From an uncultured Candidatus Saccharibacteria bacterium (lineage in GTDB: Bacteria; Patescibacteriota; Doudnabacteria; UBA920): a DNA stretch of 64,000 bases. A model generated the notes under the pieces. The model was not told the origin of the DNA. It did not search any database and saw nothing but the letters and a program-made list of their open reading frames with translations. How positions within the stretch are numbered: the stretch's first letter is position 1; every line of letters begins with the position of its first letter. Below, piece after piece: positions 3,112-36,405 of the stretch. The position numbers and the translations under genes were made by a program. Location: assembly GCA_964532425.1 (NCBI GenBank), contig CAZHIA010000001.1, forward strand, positions 124,951 to 188,950, in the 5' to 3' direction.

Positions 3112-3204
3112 GCGGCCTGGCGAAGTGCACCAGGCCCCCTTACCAGAATTCTTCATACTGCAATACTGCACCGTATTGCAGTATCGAGAATTGCGGTAAG
3201 GAGG
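3112..3204 (+). repeat. structured intercistronic element, copy A (GC hairpin - CCCCTTACCAGA - hairpin - GAGAATTGCGGTAAGGAG)
   Basis: Hairpin GGCCTGGCGAAGTGCACCAGGCC, then CCCCTTACCAGAATT, then hairpin ATACTGCAATAC/GTATTGCAGTAT, then GAGAATTGCGGTAAGGAG. Three further copies at 4505, 5037 and 6195. Confidence 0.7.
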
Positions 3205-3207
3205 GAA

Positions 3208-4064
3208 TGAAAATGACAGGAGGATTTCTAAGAGATTGGTTGTTGCATCTCATCTGGCACAACGAGATGCCGAGTGACTTGGTGCTCGTACGCCACGGCG
3301 AGAGCGAAGGCAACAAGACCAAAAACGAGCAGGAATGGTTTAACCACCCTGAGTTCGCCAAACGGCACAGTTCCGATTGGCGGCTGACCGACAAAGGCCG
3401 CTGGCAGCGGAACGAGGCTGGGTTGTGGATCCGCCAGAATATTCTACCGGTCATTCCCGGTAAGAAGTTCTACCGCCACTACACCTCCAACTATGTTCGC
3501 GCCATGGAAACAGCCGGCGGACTGGGGCTTAATGCCGAATGGTTTGTCCACTTCTTCCTGCGCGAGCGGGACTGGGGCTGGCTCGATGTGATGTCCAAGG
3601 AGCAGCGCCAAAAGTTGTTCCCACGGGAGTTGGAATGGATGAAAATAGGCGGGTTCCTGACCGCGCCGCCCAACGGCGAATCTTTGGCGGACTTGTGCAT
3701 CCGCGGGTATTTGATGAACAATACACTCGGTCGCGAGTGCGCCCGCAGGCCGGTCATAATGGTCAACCATGGCGAGTTCATGTGGGGCGAACGGGTACTG
3801 CTCGAACGGATCCCGCTCGACCGGTATCGGTTACTCGATGAATCGAAAGACCCCAAGGATCGTATCCATAATTGCCAGATTCTCTGGTACACTCGGCGCG
3901 ATCCGGTGTCCGGAAAGCTGGCTAAGTATTTCAAGTGGATGAAGTCGGTCTGTCCGTGGGACCTTTCGCTTTCTCATAACGAGTGGCGGGAAATTGAACG
4001 TCCGCGCTTCAGTGATGAAGAACTCTTAGCGCGGGCCGAAGCGATTCCACAGATCGTGAGTTAG
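3208..4064 (+). CDS. histidine phosphatase (phosphoglycerate-mutase-like) family protein
   Basis: LVLVRHGESEGN (codons 3291-3302) is the catalytic RHGE signature of the histidine phosphatase superfamily. Start moved to the ATG at 3208 (MKMTGG) just after the AAGGAGGG RBS. The listed ORF start at 3102 would read through the repeat element. Confidence 0.65.
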
Positions 4065-4504: not shown

Positions 4505-4596
4505 AGCGGTGGCAACATGCTGCCACCGCCCCTTACCAGAATTGTTGATACTGCAGTACTGCACCGTACTGCAGTATGGAGAATTGCGGCAAGGAA
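4505..4596 (+). repeat. structured intercistronic element, copy B
   Basis: AAGCGGTGGCAACATGCTGCCACCGC hairpin, then CCCCTTACCAGAATT, then hairpin ATACTGCAGTAC/GTACTGCAGTAT (G:C where copy A has A:T at the same stem position), then GAGAATTGCGGCAAGGA. Confidence 0.7.
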
Positions 4597-5018: not shown

Positions 5019-5036
5019 CACTCACAACGAAGCGGT

Positions 5037-5127
5037 GGCAGCATGCTGTCACCGCCCCTTACCAGAGTTTTCCACTCTATTACACTCCCGTAATAGAGTA
5101 TGGAAAATTGCGGCAAGGAGAAATCCT
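5037..5127 (+). repeat. structured intercistronic element, copy C
   Basis: GAAGCGGTGGCAGCATGCTGTCACCGC, then CCCCTTACCAGAGTT, then a hairpin of entirely different sequence (CTCTATTAC / GTAATAGAG), then GGAAAATTGCGGCAAGGAG. Hairpin structure is kept while its sequence is replaced. Confidence 0.7.
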
Positions 5128-6194: not shown

Positions 6195-6395
6195 AGCGGT
6201 GGCAGCATGCTGCCACCGCCCCTTACCAGAGTTTTCAGTGAGTATGTCATTGCGAGTCAAAGAAATTTTTAGTAATAAATTTCTTCGACGAAGCAATCTT
6301 TCCTGTAACGGTACAAGATTGCCGCGGCCTCATATTGAATTCTAAAAATATGAAGCCTCGCAATGACGACGACATTGAAAATTGCGGTAAGGGAT
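6195..6395 (+). repeat. structured intercistronic element, copy D, with a ~120-bp nested insertion
   Basis: AAGCGGTGGCAGCATGCTGCCACCGC, then CCCCTTACCAGAGTTTTCAG, then [6246-6366 insert], then GACGACATTGAAAATTGCGGTAAGGGA. The short hairpin seen in copies A-C is replaced by a 121-bp structured insert. Confidence 0.65.
6246..6366. repeat. MITE-like structured element X (GTCATTGCGAG ... CTCGCAATGAC termini), second copy at 13569..13684
   Basis: 11-bp terminal inverted repeats GTCATTGCGAG/CTCGCAATGAC, an inner inverted repeat AAGCAATCT/AGATTGC, and internal AAAGAAATTT...AAATTTCTTT hairpins. The same termini and inner blocks occur at 13569-13684. Confidence 0.6.
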
Positions 6396-6453
6396 GATGC
6401 AGTAGGGAAGTAATCATTCCAGGCAGTTTAAAAATACGACAGGGGGAAATTAT

Positions 6454-13526: not shown

Positions 13527-13568
13527 TGGTACTTTCCTCCGAAACTGGGGTAATAGCCGGTCGTGATT

Positions 13569-13684
13569 GTCATTGCGAGGAGGTAAGGGCCTTATCTTAC
13601 CGACGAAGCAATCTTAAATTTGACACGATTAGATTGCCTCGCCAAAGAAATTCATTGCTAAAAATTTCTTTGGCTCGCAATGAC
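13569..13684. repeat. MITE-like structured element Y (second copy of the 6246..6366 element)
   Basis: GTCATTGCGAG ... CGACGAAGCAATCT ... AGATTGCC ... CTCGCAATGAC in the same order as element X. Variable arms keep their hairpins (CCAAAGAAATT...AATTTCTTTGG). Confidence 0.6.
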
Positions 13685-13896
13685 AAAGCGCAAGCTTATT
13701 CTGAGTTTCTATCATTAAGTGATTTTTACTGGCCAATTGTAGCAAGGTTTAAAAAATTATTCTACAAACCTTTTCAAATTTTTTTGGTTCAGCTTACCAT
13801 TAAGCCGGAAAAAATTTTTTAAAATTGCTGATCATGGCATGGGTGCGGGCCCATCAAGAATCCAGGATTCCCTTTAAGGGGGCTTGTGGAGGCGGT

Positions 13897-13949
13897 CCTG
13901 CCTGCCGGTCATCGACTCCGAGATCGCTCAGACTCGAGGAGCAGGCAGG
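13897..13949. repeat. 53-nt GC-rich hairpin element (CCTGCCTGC...GCAGGCAGG), copy 1
   Basis: CCTGCCTGCCGGTCATCGACTCCGAGATCGCTCAGACTCGAGGAGCAGGCAGG. The reverse complement of 35488-35541 matches it with about 4 mismatches. Flanked by small CCCTTTAAGGG / CCCTTCAAGGG palindromes. Confidence 0.6.
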
Positions 13950-14066
13950 CGCGACCGCCCCCTACGAGTAATGAAGTCCCCGGAAGGTTCCCTTCAAGGG
14001 CGCTCGCGTGCTCGACGCAATTCCACTCTCGGGGTATACTAGGGGTGCATAATTACAAGGAATTGT

Positions 14067-21947: not shown

Positions 21948-23750
21948 GTGACGAGAAAACAAAGAGGTTTCACCATCGTTGAGGTACTGGTCAGCGTGGC
22001 TATTTTTGCCATTTTACTGACCGGTATTTTAGGCGCGTATGCCGCCTTGTCGAAGACAGTAAAAGCGGCGCGCGAGAAAACTGTCCTGTCGTCCCTGGCC
22101 TCGTACTATGTCGAGACTATCCGCAATATGCCGTATAGCCAGGTAGGAACTGCAAGCGGCAACCCGCACGGCAATCTGCCCGATTACACCAATGCGATCA
22201 CTCAGAAGATCGAAGCTTTTACCTATAAAATTTATTACGAGGTTACGTACATCGACGACCCTTCCGACGGGACGATTCTTGCCGGGACTGATCCGGCCCC
22301 TGATGACTATAAGCAGGTCAAGATGGATATTTTAAACGTGGCAACAGGGCAGGTGACGTCATTTGTGACCAATGTGGTGCCGAAAGGGTTGGAGGGAACT
22401 ATCAATGCCGGTGCCTTGCTGATCAAGGTCATGAATGCGTCGGGTCAACCGGTAACTGATGCGACCATTCACATTCAATCGGTCGGCCTGACTCCGAGCG
22501 TTGTTTTAGACCGCGAGTCGGACAGTAACGGTCAATGGGCGGAAGTCGGTTTGCCGGTTGGGGTCAATGCGTACCATATTGTCGTAACCAAACCTGGGTA
22601 TTCTTCTGACCAGACGTATCCCATTACCGTGCAAAATCCCAATCCGACCAAACCCGATGCTACCATTGCGAACGGTCAGGTGACGCAGATTAGCTTCGCT
22701 ATTGATTACCTGTCGAACCTGAATATCAAGACTTTAGACAGCTTGTGCCAGCCCGTTTCCGGCGTGAATTTGAATGTACTCGGCGCGAAGTTGATTGGCA
22801 CGAGCCCGAAAGTCTATAAATTTAACCAGAACTTCACCTCGAATGCCGGACTGGTCGCACTGAACAATATTGAATGGGATACGTATACGCCGACCTTACT
22901 CACCGGACAGTCGTGGGTGGTTCGTGGGACCTCTCCTATTCAAAAGATTGATGTTTTGCCTGGCACCACCCAGACTTTTACCATGATCCTCGGCTCGAAT
23001 ACCACGGCCAACAGCCTCCTGGTGATTGTGAAAGACAAGACGACCGGAGTGGCACTCGAAGGAGCGAATGTCCACTTGCAGAAAGGCGGTAGCGTACCGC
23101 AGGATTACTACGCCATTACCGGCGGTAGCGTCTGGATTCAAAGCGATTGGAGCGGCGGCAGCGGAACCCAAATGTGGTCAGCTACCAGCAGCAAGGATCA
23201 TTACTATCAGGACGACGGGAATGTTGATTCCAACAGCTCGCCGACCGGGCTGCGCCTGAAAAAGACCTCGGGCAAGTATGCGCCTGCCGGATGGGCCGAG
23301 TCATCCACGTTCGACACCGGGACGAATGCGACTAATTTCACGACTATCTCATGGCAGCCGACATCGCAGGATCCGAACACAGAATTAAAATTCCAGATCG
23401 CGGCTAACACGGACAATGCGACCTGGAACTATGTCGGGCCCGATGGCACTGCCGGGTCATACTATGCGGTATCAGGGAGCAACATTAGCAGCACGCTGGA
23501 CAATAATCGGTATGTCCGCTACAAAGTCTACCTTTCTACAGCGCAGAATAATAAGACCCCAGTGTTGACCTCGGTCAATCTCAATTTTGTGACCGGCTGT
23601 TTTACTCCCGGACAGGTGTTTTTCCCGGACCTGACTGCTGGCAATAATTATTCTCTCGATGTTACCCTTGACGGCTATGCGACGAAAACGATCAATTCAG
23701 TCAATATCAACGGTAATCAACCGTTGGAAATATTGCTGACGCCGCAATAA
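21948..23750 (+). CDS. type IV pilin-like protein (prepilin N-terminal methylation domain) with large C-terminal domain
   Basis: 600 aa. GTG start. N-terminus MTRKQRGFTIVEVLVSVAIFAILLTGILGA is a class III signal with G|FTxxE cleavage/methylation motif. The remainder is rich in beta-type Thr/Ser/Asn repeats. Confidence 0.8.
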   Translation: MTRKQRGFTIVEVLVSVAIFAILLTGILGAYAALSKTVKAAREKTVLSSLASYYVETIRNMPYSQVGTASGNPHGNLPDYTNAITQKIEAFTYKIYYEVTYIDDPSDGTILAGTDPAPDDYKQVKMDILNVATGQVTSFVTNVVPKGLEGTINAGALLIKVMNASGQPVTDATIHIQSVGLTPSVVLDRESDSNGQWAEVGLPVGVNAYHIVVTKPGYSSDQTYPITVQNPNPTKPDATIANGQVTQISFAIDYLSNLNIKTLDSLCQPVSGVNLNVLGAKLIGTSPKVYKFNQNFTSNAGLVALNNIEWDTYTPTLLTGQSWVVRGTSPIQKIDVLPGTTQTFTMILGSNTTANSLLVIVKDKTTGVALEGANVHLQKGGSVPQDYYAITGGSVWIQSDWSGGSGTQMWSATSSKDHYYQDDGNVDSNSSPTGLRLKKTSGKYAPAGWAESSTFDTGTNATNFTTISWQPTSQDPNTELKFQIAANTDNATWNYVGPDGTAGSYYAVSGSNISSTLDNNRYVRYKVYLSTAQNNKTPVLTSVNLNFVTGCFTPGQVFFPDLTAGNNYSLDVTLDGYATKTINSVNINGNQPLEILLTPQ

Positions 23751-23783
23751 GGGCGGCGACATTTGACATGTAACATGTGACAT

Positions 23784-24473
23784 GTGACGATTCAAACATT
23801 TCAAACCTTTTCTTTGGCCAATAGCCATCCGTCGACGCTCAGGCTGTTGCGGACCGAAAAGCCAAGTGGGGGATACGGCTTCACTCTCATAGAGGTCATG
23901 ATCTCGGTGTTTGCATTTTGCCTGATCGCGTTCGGTCTTATAGCGTTGGTCTCTGGCATATTGACCAGTTCTTCCAAACAGAGCGGTATGCTGGCAGATA
24001 CTGATCAGGCCCGCAAGGTGGCGTTTCAAATTAGTACCGAATTACGCAATGCACAGGTGGGGGCCGACGGCTCGTATCCATTGAATGTCGCGGGAGCCCA
24101 ACAAATAATCTTCTTTACCAATGCGGATCGGGACAATACCGTCGAGCGGGTTCGCTACTTTATCCAGAATGGCGACCTCTGGAAGGGTGTAACCGAGTAC
24201 AACGGTTCTTCGTATAATACTTCGACGGAAAGCTCGTACGTGGTCCAGGACAATTTAGCGAACGGATCGAACCCCGTGTTTTACTATTATGACGGCAGTT
24301 TTACCGGTTCGTCCACACAAACCTCACTGTCACAGCCGGTCAACGTTACGGGAGTTAAATTCGTTAAAGTGGTCCTGACAGTTACAAACCGGGGCGGGGT
24401 GAAAAATACCAATACCTTTACCGTGACCGCAGGCGCTGCCGTACGGAATTTGAAGACAAATCTGGGACAATAA
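23784..24473 (+). CDS. type IV pseudopilin / minor pilin
   Basis: KPSGGYGFTLIEVMISVFAFCLIAFGLIALV contains the G|FTLIEV prepilin motif. The true start may be the in-frame TTG at 23847, which would give the usual ~11-aa leader. Confidence 0.65.
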   Translation: MTIQTFQTFSLANSHPSTLRLLRTEKPSGGYGFTLIEVMISVFAFCLIAFGLIALVSGILTSSSKQSGMLADTDQARKVAFQISTELRNAQVGADGSYPLNVAGAQQIIFFTNADRDNTVERVRYFIQNGDLWKGVTEYNGSSYNTSTESSYVVQDNLANGSNPVFYYYDGSFTGSSTQTSLSQPVNVTGVKFVKVVLTVTNRGGVKNTNTFTVTAGAAVRNLKTNLGQ

Positions 24474-24475
24474 CG

Positions 24476-24562
24476 CAAATGACAAAAATTAAAAAATTTA
24501 AAAAATTGACAAAAATGCTGCAGTCGAATTTTTTTAATTTTCGTCGTTTTTGTCATTTTTGT
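24476..24562. repeat. TTGACAAAA inverted-repeat array E2
   Basis: ATGACAAAAATT...AAAAAATTGACAAAAATG-CTGCAG-...TTTTCGTCGTTTTTGTCATTTTTGTTCATTTTC. It overlaps the 5' end of the next ORF. Confidence 0.55.
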
Positions 24563-25951
24563 TCATTTTCAGAATCCGGGTCCATCCTGATCTATAACAT
24601 CGTCATTATCTTCATCTTCACCCTGGTCATGCTGGGTGCGTTGGCGTATGCTACGATCCAGCTGCGCGTGGTTCGCTCCGTGGTCAACCGCGAACAGGCA
24701 TTCCAGATTGCGGAAGCCGGGGCAAATTACTACCAGTGGCATCTGGCGCATTTCGCCACCGATTATGCCGATGGCACGGGGCAGACGTGCAATCCGTGCG
24801 GGCCGTATGTGCATGATTACGTGGATAAGGACACAAACAATGTGATTGGCCGGTATTCGTTGATGGTTACTCCGCCGGTGACCGGTTCTACTATTGTGAC
24901 CATTACGTCTACCGGTTACACGCTGGCCAACCCTTTGCAAAAACGTACCGTGACAGCGCGTTACGGCATTCCGTCGCTGGCCCAATATGCTTTTTTGACG
25001 AACACGGACGCCTGGATTGGTTCGAATGAGACGGTTACCGGGCAATTCATGACCAATGGGGGAGTGCGTTTCGACGGGACCGGGAACGCGCCGATTATGT
25101 CGGCCAAACAAACATACCAATGCCAGAGCTGGTCAGGGAGCCCGTGCCCCGCGACCAAGCCGGGTATTTGGGGAGCAGCGACGCAGTCGACCCAGAATTT
25201 TTGGCAGTATCCCGTGCCGAACGTGGACTTTTCTTCAGTGACTTCCAATTTTGCGAGCATTAAGAGCTCGGCTCAGACCGGCGGCGTGTACCTGCCGCCT
25301 TCGAATCAATCGGGTTACTCGCTGGTTTTTAAATCGGACGGCACAGTGGACGTATACAAGGTAACGTCTCTGCGTGCGAATCCCACCGGATGGGACGTGG
25401 ATAATAAAGCGCACAACGAAGATCTTGATTATAATGCGCGAACATTCCTGTACAATACCCCCATTCCAAACAATGGCCTATTCTACGTTGAAGACCGGAC
25501 CTGGGTGGAGGGAACCGTAAAAGGCCGGGCCCTGGTGGCGGCCGCCAAACTCCCGTACAATGCCAATACAGCCCCAAGCATCCTGATTCCGAACAATATC
25601 GTCTATGCGGCCAAGGACGGGACAAATTCTTTGGGCTTGCTGGCTCAGGAAGACATCCTGCTGACATACTACTCTCCGAACAATCTGGAAATCGATGCGG
25701 CACTGTTTGCACAGAATGGCAGTGCACAGCATTACTACTGGCCGGGAGTGGTGAAAAATTCCATCACCATTTACGGCACAGTGGGCAGTTACGGCCTTTG
25801 GACGTGGAGCTGGGTGGATGGCGGGAATAACATAACCAGCGGGTATTCTTCCACCAATACAACCTATGATGCAAACTTGCTGTATGCACCGCCGCCAAGC
25901 TTTCCTCTGACCAGCGGCGGGTACCAGCAGATTAGCTGGAGCAGCAACTAA
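24515..25951 (+). CDS. PilX-like minor pilin (type IV pilus assembly)
   Basis: Hydrophobic helix ILIYNIVIIFIFTLVMLGALAYA followed by REQAFQIAEAGANYY, as in the PilX N-terminal domain (AFQAAEAGL). The start is uncertain: ATG at 24515, or 24479 inside the repeat array. No clean G|FxxxE motif. Confidence 0.5.
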   Translation: MLQSNFFNFRRFCHFCSFSESGSILIYNIVIIFIFTLVMLGALAYATIQLRVVRSVVNREQAFQIAEAGANYYQWHLAHFATDYADGTGQTCNPCGPYVHDYVDKDTNNVIGRYSLMVTPPVTGSTIVTITSTGYTLANPLQKRTVTARYGIPSLAQYAFLTNTDAWIGSNETVTGQFMTNGGVRFDGTGNAPIMSAKQTYQCQSWSGSPCPATKPGIWGAATQSTQNFWQYPVPNVDFSSVTSNFASIKSSAQTGGVYLPPSNQSGYSLVFKSDGTVDVYKVTSLRANPTGWDVDNKAHNEDLDYNARTFLYNTPIPNNGLFYVEDRTWVEGTVKGRALVAAAKLPYNANTAPSILIPNNIVYAAKDGTNSLGLLAQEDILLTYYSPNNLEIDAALFAQNGSAQHYYWPGVVKNSITIYGTVGSYGLWTWSWVDGGNNITSGYSSTNTTYDANLLYAPPPSFPLTSGGYQQISWSSN

Positions 25952-33247: not shown

Positions 33248-34063
33248 ATGACAGAACACACCCACCACCACACTCCGGCTACTCCGGATGATGCTGGGCA
33301 GACAGGATCTCCTTCCATGCAGGGCGGCAGCCAGGGCATGGTCGCCTTGAGCATTTTGCTCGGGGCAATCTTAGTAGCAGCAGCGATGTTTTATAACACC
33401 AACGTCCTGGTGAAGAAAATGGGCGGAACGGAATTGACAGCACAAAAGGGTACGGAACAGCAGGCGCAAGCCCAGCCACAACCTCAACCTCAGGCGCAAG
33501 CCCAGCCACAGCAGCCGTCCGGGCCGGTGAGTGTCACGGATCGCGGTGACCAGCCGACTATTGGAAAGTCAAATGCCAAGGTGACCATTTACGAATTCTC
33601 AGATTTCCAGTGCCCATTCTGCCAACGGTTTGAACAGGGAGCTTATGCGCAGATTAAAACCAATTATATCGACACCGGCAAGGCCAAACTCGTATACCGC
33701 CACTATCCGCTGCCTTTCCACGTGAATGCCCAAAAGGCCGCAGAAGCAGGGGAGTGCGCGAATCGTCAAGGTAAGTTTGAGGCTTACCATGATATGCTCT
33801 TCGCCAAAGGCCAAGCTGACGGAACAGGGTTAGCTCCTGCTGATCTCAAGCAGTATGCTTCCCAGGTCGGTCTGGATACCGGCAAGTTCAACAAGTGTCT
33901 GGATAACGGCGAGACTGCCCAGGTGATCAAAGATGATACGGCTGCAGGAACGGCTGCCGGCATCAACGGCACTCCGAGCTTCGTAATCGGCGGTAAGCTG
34001 ATTGTCGGAGCCCAGGACTACAGCCAATTCCAGGCTGCGATCGATGAGGCGCTGAAGAAATAG
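33248..34063 (+). CDS. DsbA-like thiol:disulfide oxidoreductase (thioredoxin fold)
   Basis: TM anchor, (QPQ/AQ)n linker, then FSDFQCPFCQRF with a CPFC active site (33611-33622) and the DsbA-family pattern GTPSFVIGGKLIVGAQ. Confidence 0.85.
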   Translation: MTEHTHHHTPATPDDAGQTGSPSMQGGSQGMVALSILLGAILVAAAMFYNTNVLVKKMGGTELTAQKGTEQQAQAQPQPQPQAQAQPQQPSGPVSVTDRGDQPTIGKSNAKVTIYEFSDFQCPFCQRFEQGAYAQIKTNYIDTGKAKLVYRHYPLPFHVNAQKAAEAGECANRQGKFEAYHDMLFAKGQADGTGLAPADLKQYASQVGLDTGKFNKCLDNGETAQVIKDDTAAGTAAGINGTPSFVIGGKLIVGAQDYSQFQAAIDEALKK

Positions 34064-34107
34064 ATTCGAGAGCAGAGTTGGTAGTGAGTAGTTTATAGTT
34101 TATAGTA

Positions 34108-34147
34108 AACACCGCCTGACTGTATGGTCAGGCGGTGTTTTGGTTTT
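34108..34147 (+). terminator. rho-independent terminator
   Basis: AACACCGCCTGAC-TGTATG-GTCAGGCGGTGTT hairpin followed by TTGGTTTTG. Confidence 0.7.
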
Positions 34148-34149
34148 GA

Positions 34150-35690
34150 ATGCCCTTTGCGCAAAAATCGACGCTCAAATTTGCCATTAGAAAGGAGTTT
34201 TTATGGGTCTTGGTAGATTGAGTAGCTCCTTAAATTATCGTTTGAGGGCAGTAAGTTTGGCGGTAGGCATACATGTTGTTCTGTTTGCGGTAGGACAAGG
34301 GGAGATTTGGTTTGCTGATGCATATTCGTATAATGAAATGAACATCGCTGTCCTTGCTCGCAAGATTTGTAGATTGAACAGACTTACCTGAAATTCGTCG
34401 TGGCCGGAGTGCAAAAATCACAGCCGATAATTAAATTTTATACTTGCAAATGTATAGGGGAATGGAAGGCGAGTGTACAGTGCTGGTGTGACTGAGGTAA
34501 ATATTTTGTTAACACTATTGAACAGAGTGCCAGGTGAATCCCTCTCCTATCTTTCAGGTGGGTGCGTTGCGTAAAGCACGTAAGGAGAGAAATCTTGCTG
34601 AGTAGATTTCAGTCTTCGTCTGAGAGAGTAGAAAGATATCCGCTGGGGGCAAATATTATTACATAATCGGAACGGTTCAATTGTAACCCAACTTTTGCAT
34701 TTGTAAATATTTATTATTTGAGATATGGGCAAGAGGACGTTGCATCATCTGATGATGTATGAATAAATTTCGTCCCTACAAAACACATCCCGACAACTGT
34801 CCGAGGATTCTGTGCAGGAGCAAGCGACAGCTGCCCGCTCCCATTCTGATTGTTAAATTTTTGCGGGCGGATCCAACCTTCGCATGAACCTTCCTTCTTC
34901 GCTTAAGCTATGGAGGACAAGTCGGCGGACACGGTAAGTCCATGCACCATCCGATGGTGCATGGATAAATCTCCCCCCTGTACATATGACGGTGATCGCG
35001 CATGTGTCTCTTGCTCCCTGTAGGGACGAGCGATGGCTGTCCGATTAACCTACAGTGTAACTGTGATGGGCTGATTAATGCGGCCCCTCTATAAACAAAT
35101 TACTGATCACTCCAGTGCAGGAGAGTATTTTTTCCCCGCCATGGCTTTCCCGTCCGACAAAGCTTTTTGACCGTCAGTAGTTTTAACGGAGGAGGGTAGC
35201 GATGATAGGAAGCGACGGTGGGAGTCGCCCTCTAACAGCTTTACATCGGATCCGTTACGGGCGCATGAATGCGGCCTCTACAGAATACATACCGATGATC
35301 GTAAAGATGTTCCTTGTTCCTTGTAGGGGCAAGCGGCAGCTGCCCGTCCCGTTGGAGTTGATACCATGGTGATACGGGCGGGTCTAGTCACGAGCGGATG
35401 AATCCTGCCCTGCTGACTACATATTGATAACCCCTGAAGTGTAGGGGTGTGCTTTCTTGTCTACCAAGACTTTTTGACTGTCCATAGCCCTGCCTGCTCC
35501 TCGAGTCTGAGCAACCTCGGAGTCGAAGACCGGCAGGCAGGTTCATGCGAAGGGTATTGCGACGGGGCGGGAGCTGTCCGCACTCATCATGTATCAGGTG
35601 CTATAACCGGGCGGACTTATTAAATCCATACAACATCTAATGGTTGATGGATAAACCTCACCCCTACGCTGTGAGTAGTTCCTCCTTTTT
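34150..35690. other. 1.5-kb non-coding region with degenerate ~40-bp direct repeats and multiple hairpins; candidate ncRNA(s)/regulatory array
   Basis: No ORF over 65 aa. Repeats at 34814-34842, 35008-35043 and 35311-35351 (consensus TCTTGYTCCYTGTAGGGRCAAGCGRCAGCTGCCCGTCCC). AATGCGGCCYCTCTAYA motif at 35076 and 35263. Hairpins CATGCACCATCCGATGGTGCATG (34941-34963), GCATCATCTGATGATG (34743-34758) and ATCCATACAACATCTAATGGTTGATGGAT (35625-35653). Confidence 0.5.
35488..35541. repeat. 53-nt GC-rich hairpin element, copy 2 (inverted relative to 13897..13949)
   Basis: CCTGCCTGCTCCTCGAGTCTGAGCAACCTCGGAGTCGAAGACCGGCAGGCAGG. Its reverse complement differs from copy 1 at about 4 positions. Confidence 0.6.
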
Positions 35691-36400
35691 TGATTTGCAA
35701 GTTACCTAAATTTTCAGTCTAAAAAATGGAAAAAATTTGTGGATAACAGCAATTATAACATGCAAAATTTGAGGGTCGTAAGAAGGCATTTCAAGAGAGA
35801 TTAGGGAGTAGTATAAATAGTTAAAGATAAAAAAGCCTAACAAACATGAGACCTCAGAGTGGCGTGTAACATATGAAATTGAGAATTGCTCTTTCACTGA
35901 GAAGTAAAGCTTGAAACAAGAACTATCGTGCTTTATTTAAAGAATCTAAGTTTAAAATTAAAAGTATAATGAATCTAAATTCTATAAAATACTGAGGAAA
36001 ATATTTTTGTGGTAACACAGTTGTAACGAAGTTTCATAATGTAGCAAGTACTACCATTCCGGTGTCATTCATTTTATGAACTGCGACAATATACCTAAAA
36101 AACGTATTTAAAAAATCACACATTAATCTCTCTTATGAGATTGTTGGGGATTTTTAGATCTTTTCTGATCAAAAAATCAGCACGGGTTATGGCTAGATGA
36201 AACAGCATTTTTAACTCTCAAATCGCTGTTATTTTGCAATTCAATTTTGAAAGGAAAAATTGTTCATATTTTTGTCCAATAATTTTCTTAACGGTATAAT
36301 TTAAATATGAATATCGGGTATCCGAGAAATGCGAAAAAGACCTATAAACATAATGTATTTTAAAAGGCCAGTAGTTCAGAGACAGACAGGAAACTAACAC
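35690..36400 (+). promoter_or_regulatory. ~700-bp strongly AT-rich leader upstream of the giant gene, with a candidate promoter TTGTCC-17-TATAAT at 36271..36299
   Basis: Composition shifts sharply from ~50% GC to AT-rich. TTGTCC (36271-36276), 17-bp spacer ending CGG, TATAAT (36294-36299), about 105 nt upstream of the GTG start. Confidence 0.45.
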
Positions 36401-36405
36401 CTCAC

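Follow-up and report, generated by a model that had tools for sequence, protein, structure and literature searches.

Two structured elements of an uncultured bacterium belong to a widespread family of paired stem-loop units, probably a REPIN-like DNA repeat

What are two strongly structured, noncoding elements of about 120 bp in a 64,000-nucleotide stretch of contig CAZHIA010000001.1 from an uncultured bacterium (the window, 64 kb in length), and are they mobile DNA or part of an RNA? One of them, copy A (positions 6246 to 6367, 122 bp), sits within a hairpin repeat in an NAD-related operon; the other, copy B (13569 to 13684, 116 bp), lies 43 nt upstream of the start of an ABC-transporter gene. 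A sequence-only reading had described both as resembling miniature inverted-repeat transposable elements (MITEs), with 11-bp terminal inverted repeats, an inner inverted repeat, and differing arms, and had offered two explanations: a small nonautonomous mobile element that targets hairpin loops or a modular RNA grafted into a leader structure. Our analysis shows that each element is a head-to-head inverted dimer (tags outside) of stem-loop units of the repetitive extragenic palindromic (REP) type and that the “variable arms” are the units’ own hairpins. Of the readings considered, namely a DNA repeat resembling REPs and REP doublets forming hairpins (REPINs), an RNA gene, a classical MITE, and a host binding site, we hold the first to be likely.

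The head sequence GTCATTGCGAG has exactly four exact sites in the window, which form two inverted pairs (6246 to 6256 with 6357 to 6367 and 13569 to 13579 with 13674 to 13684). A search allowing up to one mismatch returned these four exact sites alone, whereas shuffles lead one to expect 1.02. The exact 11-bp inverted termini are common to both copies, as first described, except that the first element ends at 6367 and not at 6366. The inner motif CGACGAAGCAATCT is found in the window at 6286 and 13601 only, both within the elements, and its partner, AGATTGC, follows 16 nt downstream (6316 to 6322 in copy A and 13631 to 13637 in copy B); the inner inverted repeat is conserved in both copies. 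The likeness between the copies extends beyond low-complexity sequence. No degenerate additional copy with an adjacent inner core was found in the window at up to two mismatches.

For both copies, the predicted fold is a four-way junction made of the 11-bp terminal stem, an arm hairpin, a central GCAATCT/AGATTGC arm, and a second arm hairpin. The junction is predicted on either strand and with RNA or DNA parameters (z between -6.9 and -8.8), and none of 200 shuffles folded equally well. In terms of units, such a junction can, according to these folds, arise from two inverted units when their heads pair with each other and their inner cores do likewise. The arms generally differ between the two copies, as had been noted, but one correspondence had been missed: arm 1 of copy A (6257 to 6288) corresponds, in reverse complement, to arm 2 of copy B (13642 to 13673), 26 of 28 bases being identical when 6258 to 6285 are aligned. 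The other arms differ. Copies A and B are both heterodimers, built from at least three unit subtypes, and the same subtype stands on the left in copy A and on the right in copy B, i.e., units have been shuffled between the window copies. The window arms are AT rich (19 to 50% GC, compared with 51% for the window), and their sequences have no match among the other fetched loci, which indicates that they are lineage specific.

Folded alone, each of the four window units gives an unpaired tag, a 5-bp ATTGC/GCAAT stem, an internal loop, and a long hairpin. Unit 1 of copy A (6245 to 6299, plus strand) comprises the tag TGTC (6245 to 6248), ATTGC (6249 to 6253), GAG (6254 to 6256), a hairpin (6257 to 6288) with a 12-bp stem, one mismatch, and 19% GC, CGAA (6289 to 6292), GCAAT (6293 to 6297), and the tail CT (6298 to 6299); the unit-alone fold has a z of -3.1. 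A spacer (6300 to 6315), which forms the loop of the central arm and resembles nothing else in the window or the fetched loci, separates it from unit 2 (6316 to 6368, minus strand). The latter reads CGTC (6368 to 6365), ATTGC (6364 to 6360), GAG (6359 to 6357), hairpin (6356 to 6327), CGCG (6326 to 6323), GCAAT (6322 to 6318), and CT (6317 to 6316). It folds alone as a tagged stem-loop (z of -3.6), and its CGCG is of the CGYG type, the other common form of the inner core.

Copy B has the same layout. Its unit 1 (13568 to 13614, plus strand) consists of TGTC (13568 to 13571), ATTGC-GAG (13572 to 13579), the hairpin GA-GGTAAG...CTTACC-GA (13580 to 13603), CGAA (13604 to 13607), GCAAT (13608 to 13612), and the tail CT (13613 to 13614). 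After the spacer that forms the central-arm loop (13615 to 13630), unit 2 (13631 to 13685, minus strand) contains TGTC (13685 to 13682), ATTGC-GAG (13681 to 13674), a hairpin (13673 to 13642) of the subtype found in unit 1 of copy A, CGAG (13641 to 13638), GCAAT (13637 to 13633), and CT (13632 to 13631), with a unit-alone z of -4.6. In order, the window tags are TGTC, CGTC, TGTC, and TGTC, and the window tails are CTT or CTA, which are minority forms in the family described next.

Copies A and B belong to a dispersed, noncoding repeat family with conserved termini, in agreement with their earlier description as small and nonautonomous. An exact search of species-representative genomes and IMG/VR with the pattern GTCATTGCGAG-N5-35-GAAGCAATC-N5-35-GATTGC gave at least 120 loci in the former and at least 120 in contigs of the latter, so that the two window copies are far from the only ones. 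Among the matches listed, the common core YGTC-ATTGC-GAG...CG(AA/YG)-GCAAT-C occurs in more than 10 phyla; the hosts include many Bradyrhizobium and sphingomonads, other Alphaproteobacteria, Micavibrio, Rickettsiales, and Gamma- and Deltaproteobacteria, as well as Chloroflexi, Patescibacteria, Bacteroidota, Planctomycetota, Nostoc, Ignavibacteriota, Omnitrophota, Zixibacteria, and a spirochaete. Full elements in the family are 70 to 139 bp long, and the simplest members are perfect long hairpins, GTCATTGCGAGCGAAGCGAAGCAATCCAG...CTGGATTGCTTCGCTTCGCTCGCAATGAC. A megaplasmid of Novosphingobium resinovorum carries at least 40 copies, all unannotated. The element pattern had no match in cultured-phage records, and a full-text literature search for sequence strings returned unrelated primer matches only. 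In IMG/VR, elements are often found between genes for the portal, capsid, and tail on contigs that resemble prophages. In one set of related contigs of this kind (e.g., L125, L132, L148, L157, and L170), the element adjoins portal-like or capsid-like genes and so is carried in a conserved structural module.

Across 592 units drawn from the matches listed, the unit consists of a (C/T)GTC tag, ATTGC, GAG, a variable hairpin, CG(AA or YG), GCAAT, and a C(C/T)N tail. Tags, tails, and target duplications were counted in 188 units (94 elements) from the same source. The base before GTCATT is C in 143 of the 188 units (76%) and T in 34 (18%), and the tail after GCAAT is CCA in 118 (63%), followed by CTC, CCC, CTT, and CTA. 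Dimers are predominantly head to head (201, versus 11 of a tail-to-tail-like arrangement and 32 tandem neighbors), and single units occur too. Each element has four ATTGC/GCAAT half-sites in a symmetric arrangement. In locus L085 (2729 to 2849), four tandem, partly degenerate heads (GTCATTGCGAGCTTTCTC, GTCATTGCGAATTTCGC, GTCATTGCGACACGCC, and GTCATTGCGAGG) stand ahead of a normal dimer; repeated rounds of cutting and joining at the head, or slippage there, may have left them.

The variable hairpin takes several forms: a 5-nt C(GNA)G, an 11-nt GAGC(GNA)GCGA, a longer GA-stem-loop-stem-GA, and perfect hairpins of up to about 65 nt. Among arms of at least 10 nt that precede CGAA, the GA-stem-loop-stem-GA form is the commonest (142 arms). 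In the 43 distinct sequences of 11-nt arms, positions 3 and 9 are occupied by GC (22 sequences), AT (7), CG (5), or GT (2), and the folding energies of the arms are below those of shuffles. The arms are therefore free in sequence while their pairing is kept.

The terminal and central stems behave differently from the arms. To avoid circularity, elements were retrieved by one part and the other part was then examined. When retrieval relied on the inner core only, 89 of 121 elements had the exact 11-mer on both sides, and every position of the head was at least 96% conserved. When it relied on the heads only, 8 of the 10 inner-core positions were at least 97% conserved, and the other two were dimorphic, being either AA or YG. 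The family thus has a strict 11-nt head and a strict 10-nt inner core. Changes within the conserved terminal and central helices were uncompensated in 39 cases and compensated in 1. Together with the high conservation, this 39:1 ratio argues for sequence-specific recognition or very recent spread rather than for selection on RNA pairing.

These counts bear on the possibility that the element is a structured noncoding RNA module, i.e., a four-way junction that acts in cis on transcripts (altering their stability, processing, or translation) and is under selection as an RNA. The great stability of the predicted folds speaks for such a module, but the near-palindromic element folds equally on both strands, also with DNA parameters. 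Likewise, the hairpin shape of the arms is kept through sequence change, whereas it is the sequence itself that is conserved in the terminal and central stems. In heterodimers, the oppositions in the central arm are G-U on one strand and A-C on the other, and the former would suit an RNA read from that strand; however, between genes of the same direction, the G-U-carrying strand is sense in 11 cases and antisense in 15, and copy A has it antisense to its operon. The genomic setting agrees better with transcription: 87 elements lie between same-direction genes, 31 between convergent genes, and 22 between divergent genes, with 39 more inside crude open reading frame (ORF) calls, and a pattern of this kind has been read as a sign of REP transcription (PMC3733652).

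No Rfam family matched at gathering score in the whole window or in 18 family loci, and around copy A, only chance-level matches appeared at an E value of up to 10. The short arms may add a further point against an RNA. They contain GCGNAGC (units in loci L001 to L305), a sequence known to fold, as DNA, into a mini-hairpin of unusual stability that has a sheared G-A pair. The nearest-neighbor folding used here does not model this mini-hairpin, and we regard the motif as a lead toward DNA-level structure. An RNA module therefore seems improbable to us, and the earlier suggestion of a modular RNA grafted into a leader is not supported in view of the uncompensated changes, the lack of an orientation bias, and the Rfam result. 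The conserved core sequence, the uncompensated changes, and the absence of strand bias favor a REPIN-like DNA element over a dedicated RNA. Separately, a hammerhead or kink-turn was considered for GAG...CGAA, which flanks a helix, and was rejected on reading of the sequence: CUGAUGA is absent and the nonbulged strand is four bases too long.

If the family is DNA, the next question is whether it moves as a classical MITE does, i.e., as an internally deleted insertion sequence (IS) with 11-bp terminal inverted repeats that is mobilized by a DDE transposase binding GTCATTGCGAG. Perfect terminal inverted repeats, small size, many dispersed copies, and presence or absence at orthologous sites would all fit this explanation. 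Classical MITEs such as Correia elements and Nezha are likewise small, structured, and dispersed, have terminal inverted repeats, and can sit inside transcription units. However, no target-site duplication was found at 87 of the 94 elements (no abutting direct repeat), a result equal to that for shuffled flank pairs; in the window, the flanks are agtat/gacga for copy A and tgatt/aaagc for copy B. In addition, the inner core is as conserved as the ends, and the two exchangeable units recombine as modules, with single units and tandem heads occurring as well. What had been called 11-bp terminal inverted repeats are the heads of two inverted units.

A transposase or recombinase that would recognize these ends was not found either. 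No transposase or recombinase domain was detected in the window ORFs, the giant 8,734-amino-acid ORF having been scanned over its first 2,000 amino acids only, and no such enzyme adjoins the elements in about 290 loci, in which the nearest ORFs encode phage portal, capsid, and tail proteins but no recurring enzyme family. When the ORFs of 120 genome loci were clustered all against all, SDR and ABC proteins were the sole families to emerge. In a Pfam scan of 114 nearest ORFs, every family had at most two members, and the families shown included no transposase. No longer element or full-length, parental IS with GTCATTGCGAG ends was seen in about 2 Mb of fetched loci; the collections were not searched for long elements with these ends. 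A classical MITE, in the strict sense of the term, was already disfavored and is in our judgment very unlikely.

The window holds four copies of a second repeat, CCCCTTACCAGA, at 3136, 4529, 5055, and 6219 (0.35 expected), all of which are intergenic in a same-strand cluster that encodes a nicotinate phosphoribosyltransferase, a histidine phosphatase, a radical-SAM protein, a phosphoribosyl pyrophosphate (PRPP)-synthetase-like protein, and an NAD synthase. In each repeat, a GC-rich hairpin precedes a long one, CCTTACC...GGTAAGG(AG), with a variable tip. The first three (3113 to 3202, 4507 to 4594, and 5032 to 5118, plus strand) have an intact apical hairpin, which in the third is of a different sequence. 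In the fourth, which lies between the radical-SAM gene and the PRPP-synthetase-like gene, the 5' half (6196 to 6244, plus strand) consists of the hairpin GCGGTGGCAGCATGCTGCCACCGC (6196 to 6219) and the 5' strand of the long stem (CCCTTACCAGAGTTTTCAGTG...); the 3' strand (...CATTGAAAATTGCGGTAAGG, 6369 to 6393, plus strand) pairs with 6220 to 6241 and encloses copy A, as is seen by alignment with the three other copies and with two ortholog copies. Copy A thus stands where the other three have their variable apical hairpin, just as the sequence-only reading had proposed. Folding of 6196 to 6396 predicts copy A nested inside the host hairpin at -96 kcal/mol (z of -11.7).

At locus L122, which holds the closest relative of the PRPP-synthetase-like gene (68% protein identity), the same two genes flank the hairpin TCCTTACCAAAGTATTTAATGAATTAAAAATTTTGGTAAGG, which has a short loop and no element. 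This orthologous site lacks copy A, and as an apparently empty site in a distant relative, it provides weak evidence for insertion. As for the idea that the elements target hairpin loops, flanks that are strongly complementary, as they are at copy A, occur at 13% of elements versus 6% of controls (p = 0.02). Nesting inside other hairpins is accordingly commoner than chance, though it is not the rule, and the idea is weakly supported. Hairpins of the CCTTACC...GGTAAGG kind are present in L122 at 40 to 135 and 1118 to 1215.

The host repeats deserve a remark of their own. Their stems vary, the first and second differing at one tip pair (A-T versus G-C), and their tips vary more. In the first repeat, the 3' strand holds a Shine-Dalgarno-like sequence, GGTAAGGAGG (AAGGAGG), 10 nt before the ATG at 3213. 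This arrangement suggests that the CCCCTTACCAGA repeats might be a cis-acting RNA element that occludes a ribosome-binding site or directs processing. They have no match in Rfam.

Among known systems, the family comes closest to the CGTC-tagged REPs, whose described families, CGTC-1 to CGTC-4, include Neisseria dRS3 and Rickettsia RPE-4 and RPE-6 (Di Nocera, De Gregorio & Rocco 2013, PMC3733652). The described repeats have a terminal CGTC, often TGTC or CCTC, a stem of 8 to 9 bp that begins with A-T, T-A, a loop of 4 to 5 nt, and a 3-nt tail that is mostly CCA; they mostly form head-to-head dimers with the tags outside, often as heterodimers (PMC3733652). For CGTC-1 of Bradyrhizobium, loops of varying length are described. 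The repeats predominate in Alphaproteobacteria, extend over five phyla, and have no dedicated transposase, unlike the GTAG REPs with their REP-associated tyrosine transposase (RAYT) (PMC3733652).

The family studied here shares most of these features. Its outer tag is CGTC or TGTC (in the proportions given above) and is unpaired when the unit is folded alone; the stem of every unit, ATTGC...GCAAT, starts with A-T, T-A; the short unpaired tail has CCA as its consensus; and head-to-head dimers dominate and include heterodimers, among them both window elements. No linked transposase was found in the ORFs and loci given above, and the elements are intergenic, lying for the most part between genes of the same direction or convergent ones, in Alphaproteobacteria (Bradyrhizobium, sphingomonads, Micavibrio, and Rickettsiales) and other phyla. 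Some differences concern the host range, which is much wider here (the phyla listed above, together with IMG/VR contigs), and the window copies, which have CTT or CTA tails and TGTC as three of their four tags. With these likenesses and differences in sequence and layout, the family may be placed as a further, architecturally distinct branch of the CGTC-tagged REP kind, apparently outside the four described families insofar as stem and loop dimensions and encoded peptides can set it apart from them.

REPINs, which move with RAYT/TnpA-REP tyrosine (HUH) transposases, provide the second comparison. They too consist of two inverted units with a short spacer that fold as one long hairpin or two, are nonautonomous, cause no target duplication, and carry next to the stem an unpaired, conserved tetranucleotide at which GTAG REPs are cleaved. 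In contrast, the tag here is YGTC and not GTAG, no RAYT-like gene flanked by units was found in the window, in the fetched loci, or in the literature consulted, and the core is identical across phyla, whereas REPIN-RAYT systems are mostly lineage specific and vertically inherited. Integron attC sites offer a functional analogy only: these imperfect palindromes function as folded single strands in which short core sites are conserved while the terminal structure varies and may branch. The elements here have no cassette array and no integrase nearby, and their conserved sequence is much longer. An attC assignment was rejected, as RYYYAAC/GTTRRRY cores are absent.

By analogy with these systems, the family would work like a REPIN, i.e., as a nonautonomous, noncoding repeat that is multiplied within genomes and passed between them. 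The RAYT enzyme of GTAG REPs binds them as folded single strands and cleaves at the tag (summarized in PMC3733652). Following that model, the units would be recognized as folded single-stranded DNA by a sequence-specific, trans-acting enzyme encoded elsewhere; this enzyme would cut at or beside the YGTC tag, and insertion would proceed without target duplication, at times into a hairpin already present, at its single-stranded tip. Once in place, the element would probably be carried passively. We put forward the central step, a trans-acting enzyme that handles the units as single-stranded hairpins at the YGTC tag, as a tentative suggestion that we would not yet bet on.

It is also conceivable, though to our minds rather unlikely, that the GTCATTGCGAG/CG(AA|YG)GCAATC element constitutes a distinct, undescribed class of hairpin DNA repeat whose two-part, 21-nt core is kept identical in more than 10 phyla and in prophage-like contigs through recognition by one widely distributed enzyme encoded away from the repeats. 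Were this so, the enzyme could be, for example, a housekeeping single-strand DNA nuclease or recombinase or a phage-borne enzyme, and the exchangeable hairpins and the nesting would record structure-directed single-strand insertion.

Several points weigh against the family being a REPIN-like branch of the CGTC-tagged REPs. (i) Only 5 Watson-Crick pairs precede the conserved GAG/CG(AA|YG) internal loop of the unit, and the hairpin beyond it measures 5 to about 65 nt, whereas the described repeats have a continuous stem of 8 to 9 bp and a loop of 4 to 5 nt. The shortest units reach 9 “pairs” only when two G-A oppositions are counted, and the window units carry hairpins of 24 to 32 nt. (ii) The core appears to differ from those of CGTC-1, -3, and -4, as judged by the intragenic peptides given for these families (VIPAKAGI, SFPRKRES, VIAGLDPAI, DGRVKPGHD, and VIPWLDHGI [PMC3733652]), and six short strings from family translations had no relevant match in the supplements to PMC3733652. 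(iii) No mobilizing enzyme was identified, and the single-stranded-DNA, HUH-type step is an analogy. (iv) The relative at L122 is distant (68% protein identity), and the element may have been lost there. (v) The exact retrieval patterns favor well-preserved copies, and two copies in 64 kb are a small local sample from which to judge activity in this genome.

The conservation of the core also invites a reading in which the element is a DNA site recruited by the host: the ATTGC/GCAAT core would bind, or be processed by, a widespread protein (of the nucleoid, a topoisomerase, or a repair protein, as proposed for the REPs and bacterial interspersed mosaic elements of Escherichia coli) and would be kept for chromosome function. 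Conservation of primary sequence across phyla without a linked transposase, as well as the four symmetric half-sites per element, would agree with such a site. However, presence and copy number vary between relatives, and the element is absent from 25 kb of the loci of the two nearest relatives and from the orthologous site described above. Elements also occur on IMG/VR contigs and on a megaplasmid, and no candidate protein has come forward. For REPs, a 50-fold variation in family size has been argued to exclude a general chromosomal role (PMC3733652). We therefore doubt strongly that the family is a host site, and a REPIN-like DNA repeat remains our preferred reading.

The family matters in two respects. 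For annotation, recognizing the elements avoids false RNA genes, false MITEs, and spurious small ORFs; crude ORF calls over the repeat give translations such as VIASEAKQS... and ...LLRHFVPRND. For the biology of repeats, CGTC-type REPs are a long-known class without a known means of movement, and a 21-nt core that is identical across phyla without a transposase is puzzling. The 11-nt head and the 10-nt inner core constitute a sharply defined substrate with which the missing enzyme can be sought.

Locally, copy A is predicted to add a large, very stable structure to an intercistronic hairpin of the NAD-related operon transcript, and both copies may affect the expression of the genes that flank them. 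About 200 nt from copy B, after an AT-rich stretch, a GC-rich inverted repeat, GGTCCTGCCTGCC...GGCAGGCAGGCGCGACC, lies at 13880 to 13960 in the divergent region between the ABC-transporter gene and a gene of the HhH-GPD glycosylase family. The NAD synthase encoded in the window is only 52% identical to its best relative, which indicates that the host is an uncultured, deep-branching bacterium.

Other parts of the window are of interest in their own right. A single ORF of 8,734 codons (36406 to 62610, plus strand) encodes a highly repetitive protein rich in Ser, Thr, Gly, and Asn, in which GYNIPLTASTTNWNT and NVGIGT recur; its first 2,000 residues have no Pfam match. The 2.3 kb upstream of this giant ORF (34064 to 36405) hold ORFs of 63 codons at most and no tRNA, match no Rfam family at gathering score, and include the region of lowest GC content in the window (0.445 at 34001 to 36000). 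Downstream of a Memo-like gene, genes at 21948 to 25951 encode proteins that have a methylation motif at the N terminus and match PilX-N weakly (below the Pfam cutoff), suggesting type IV pilin-like proteins. The pilin-like genes and the giant, putative surface protein together suggest a cell-surface gene neighborhood.

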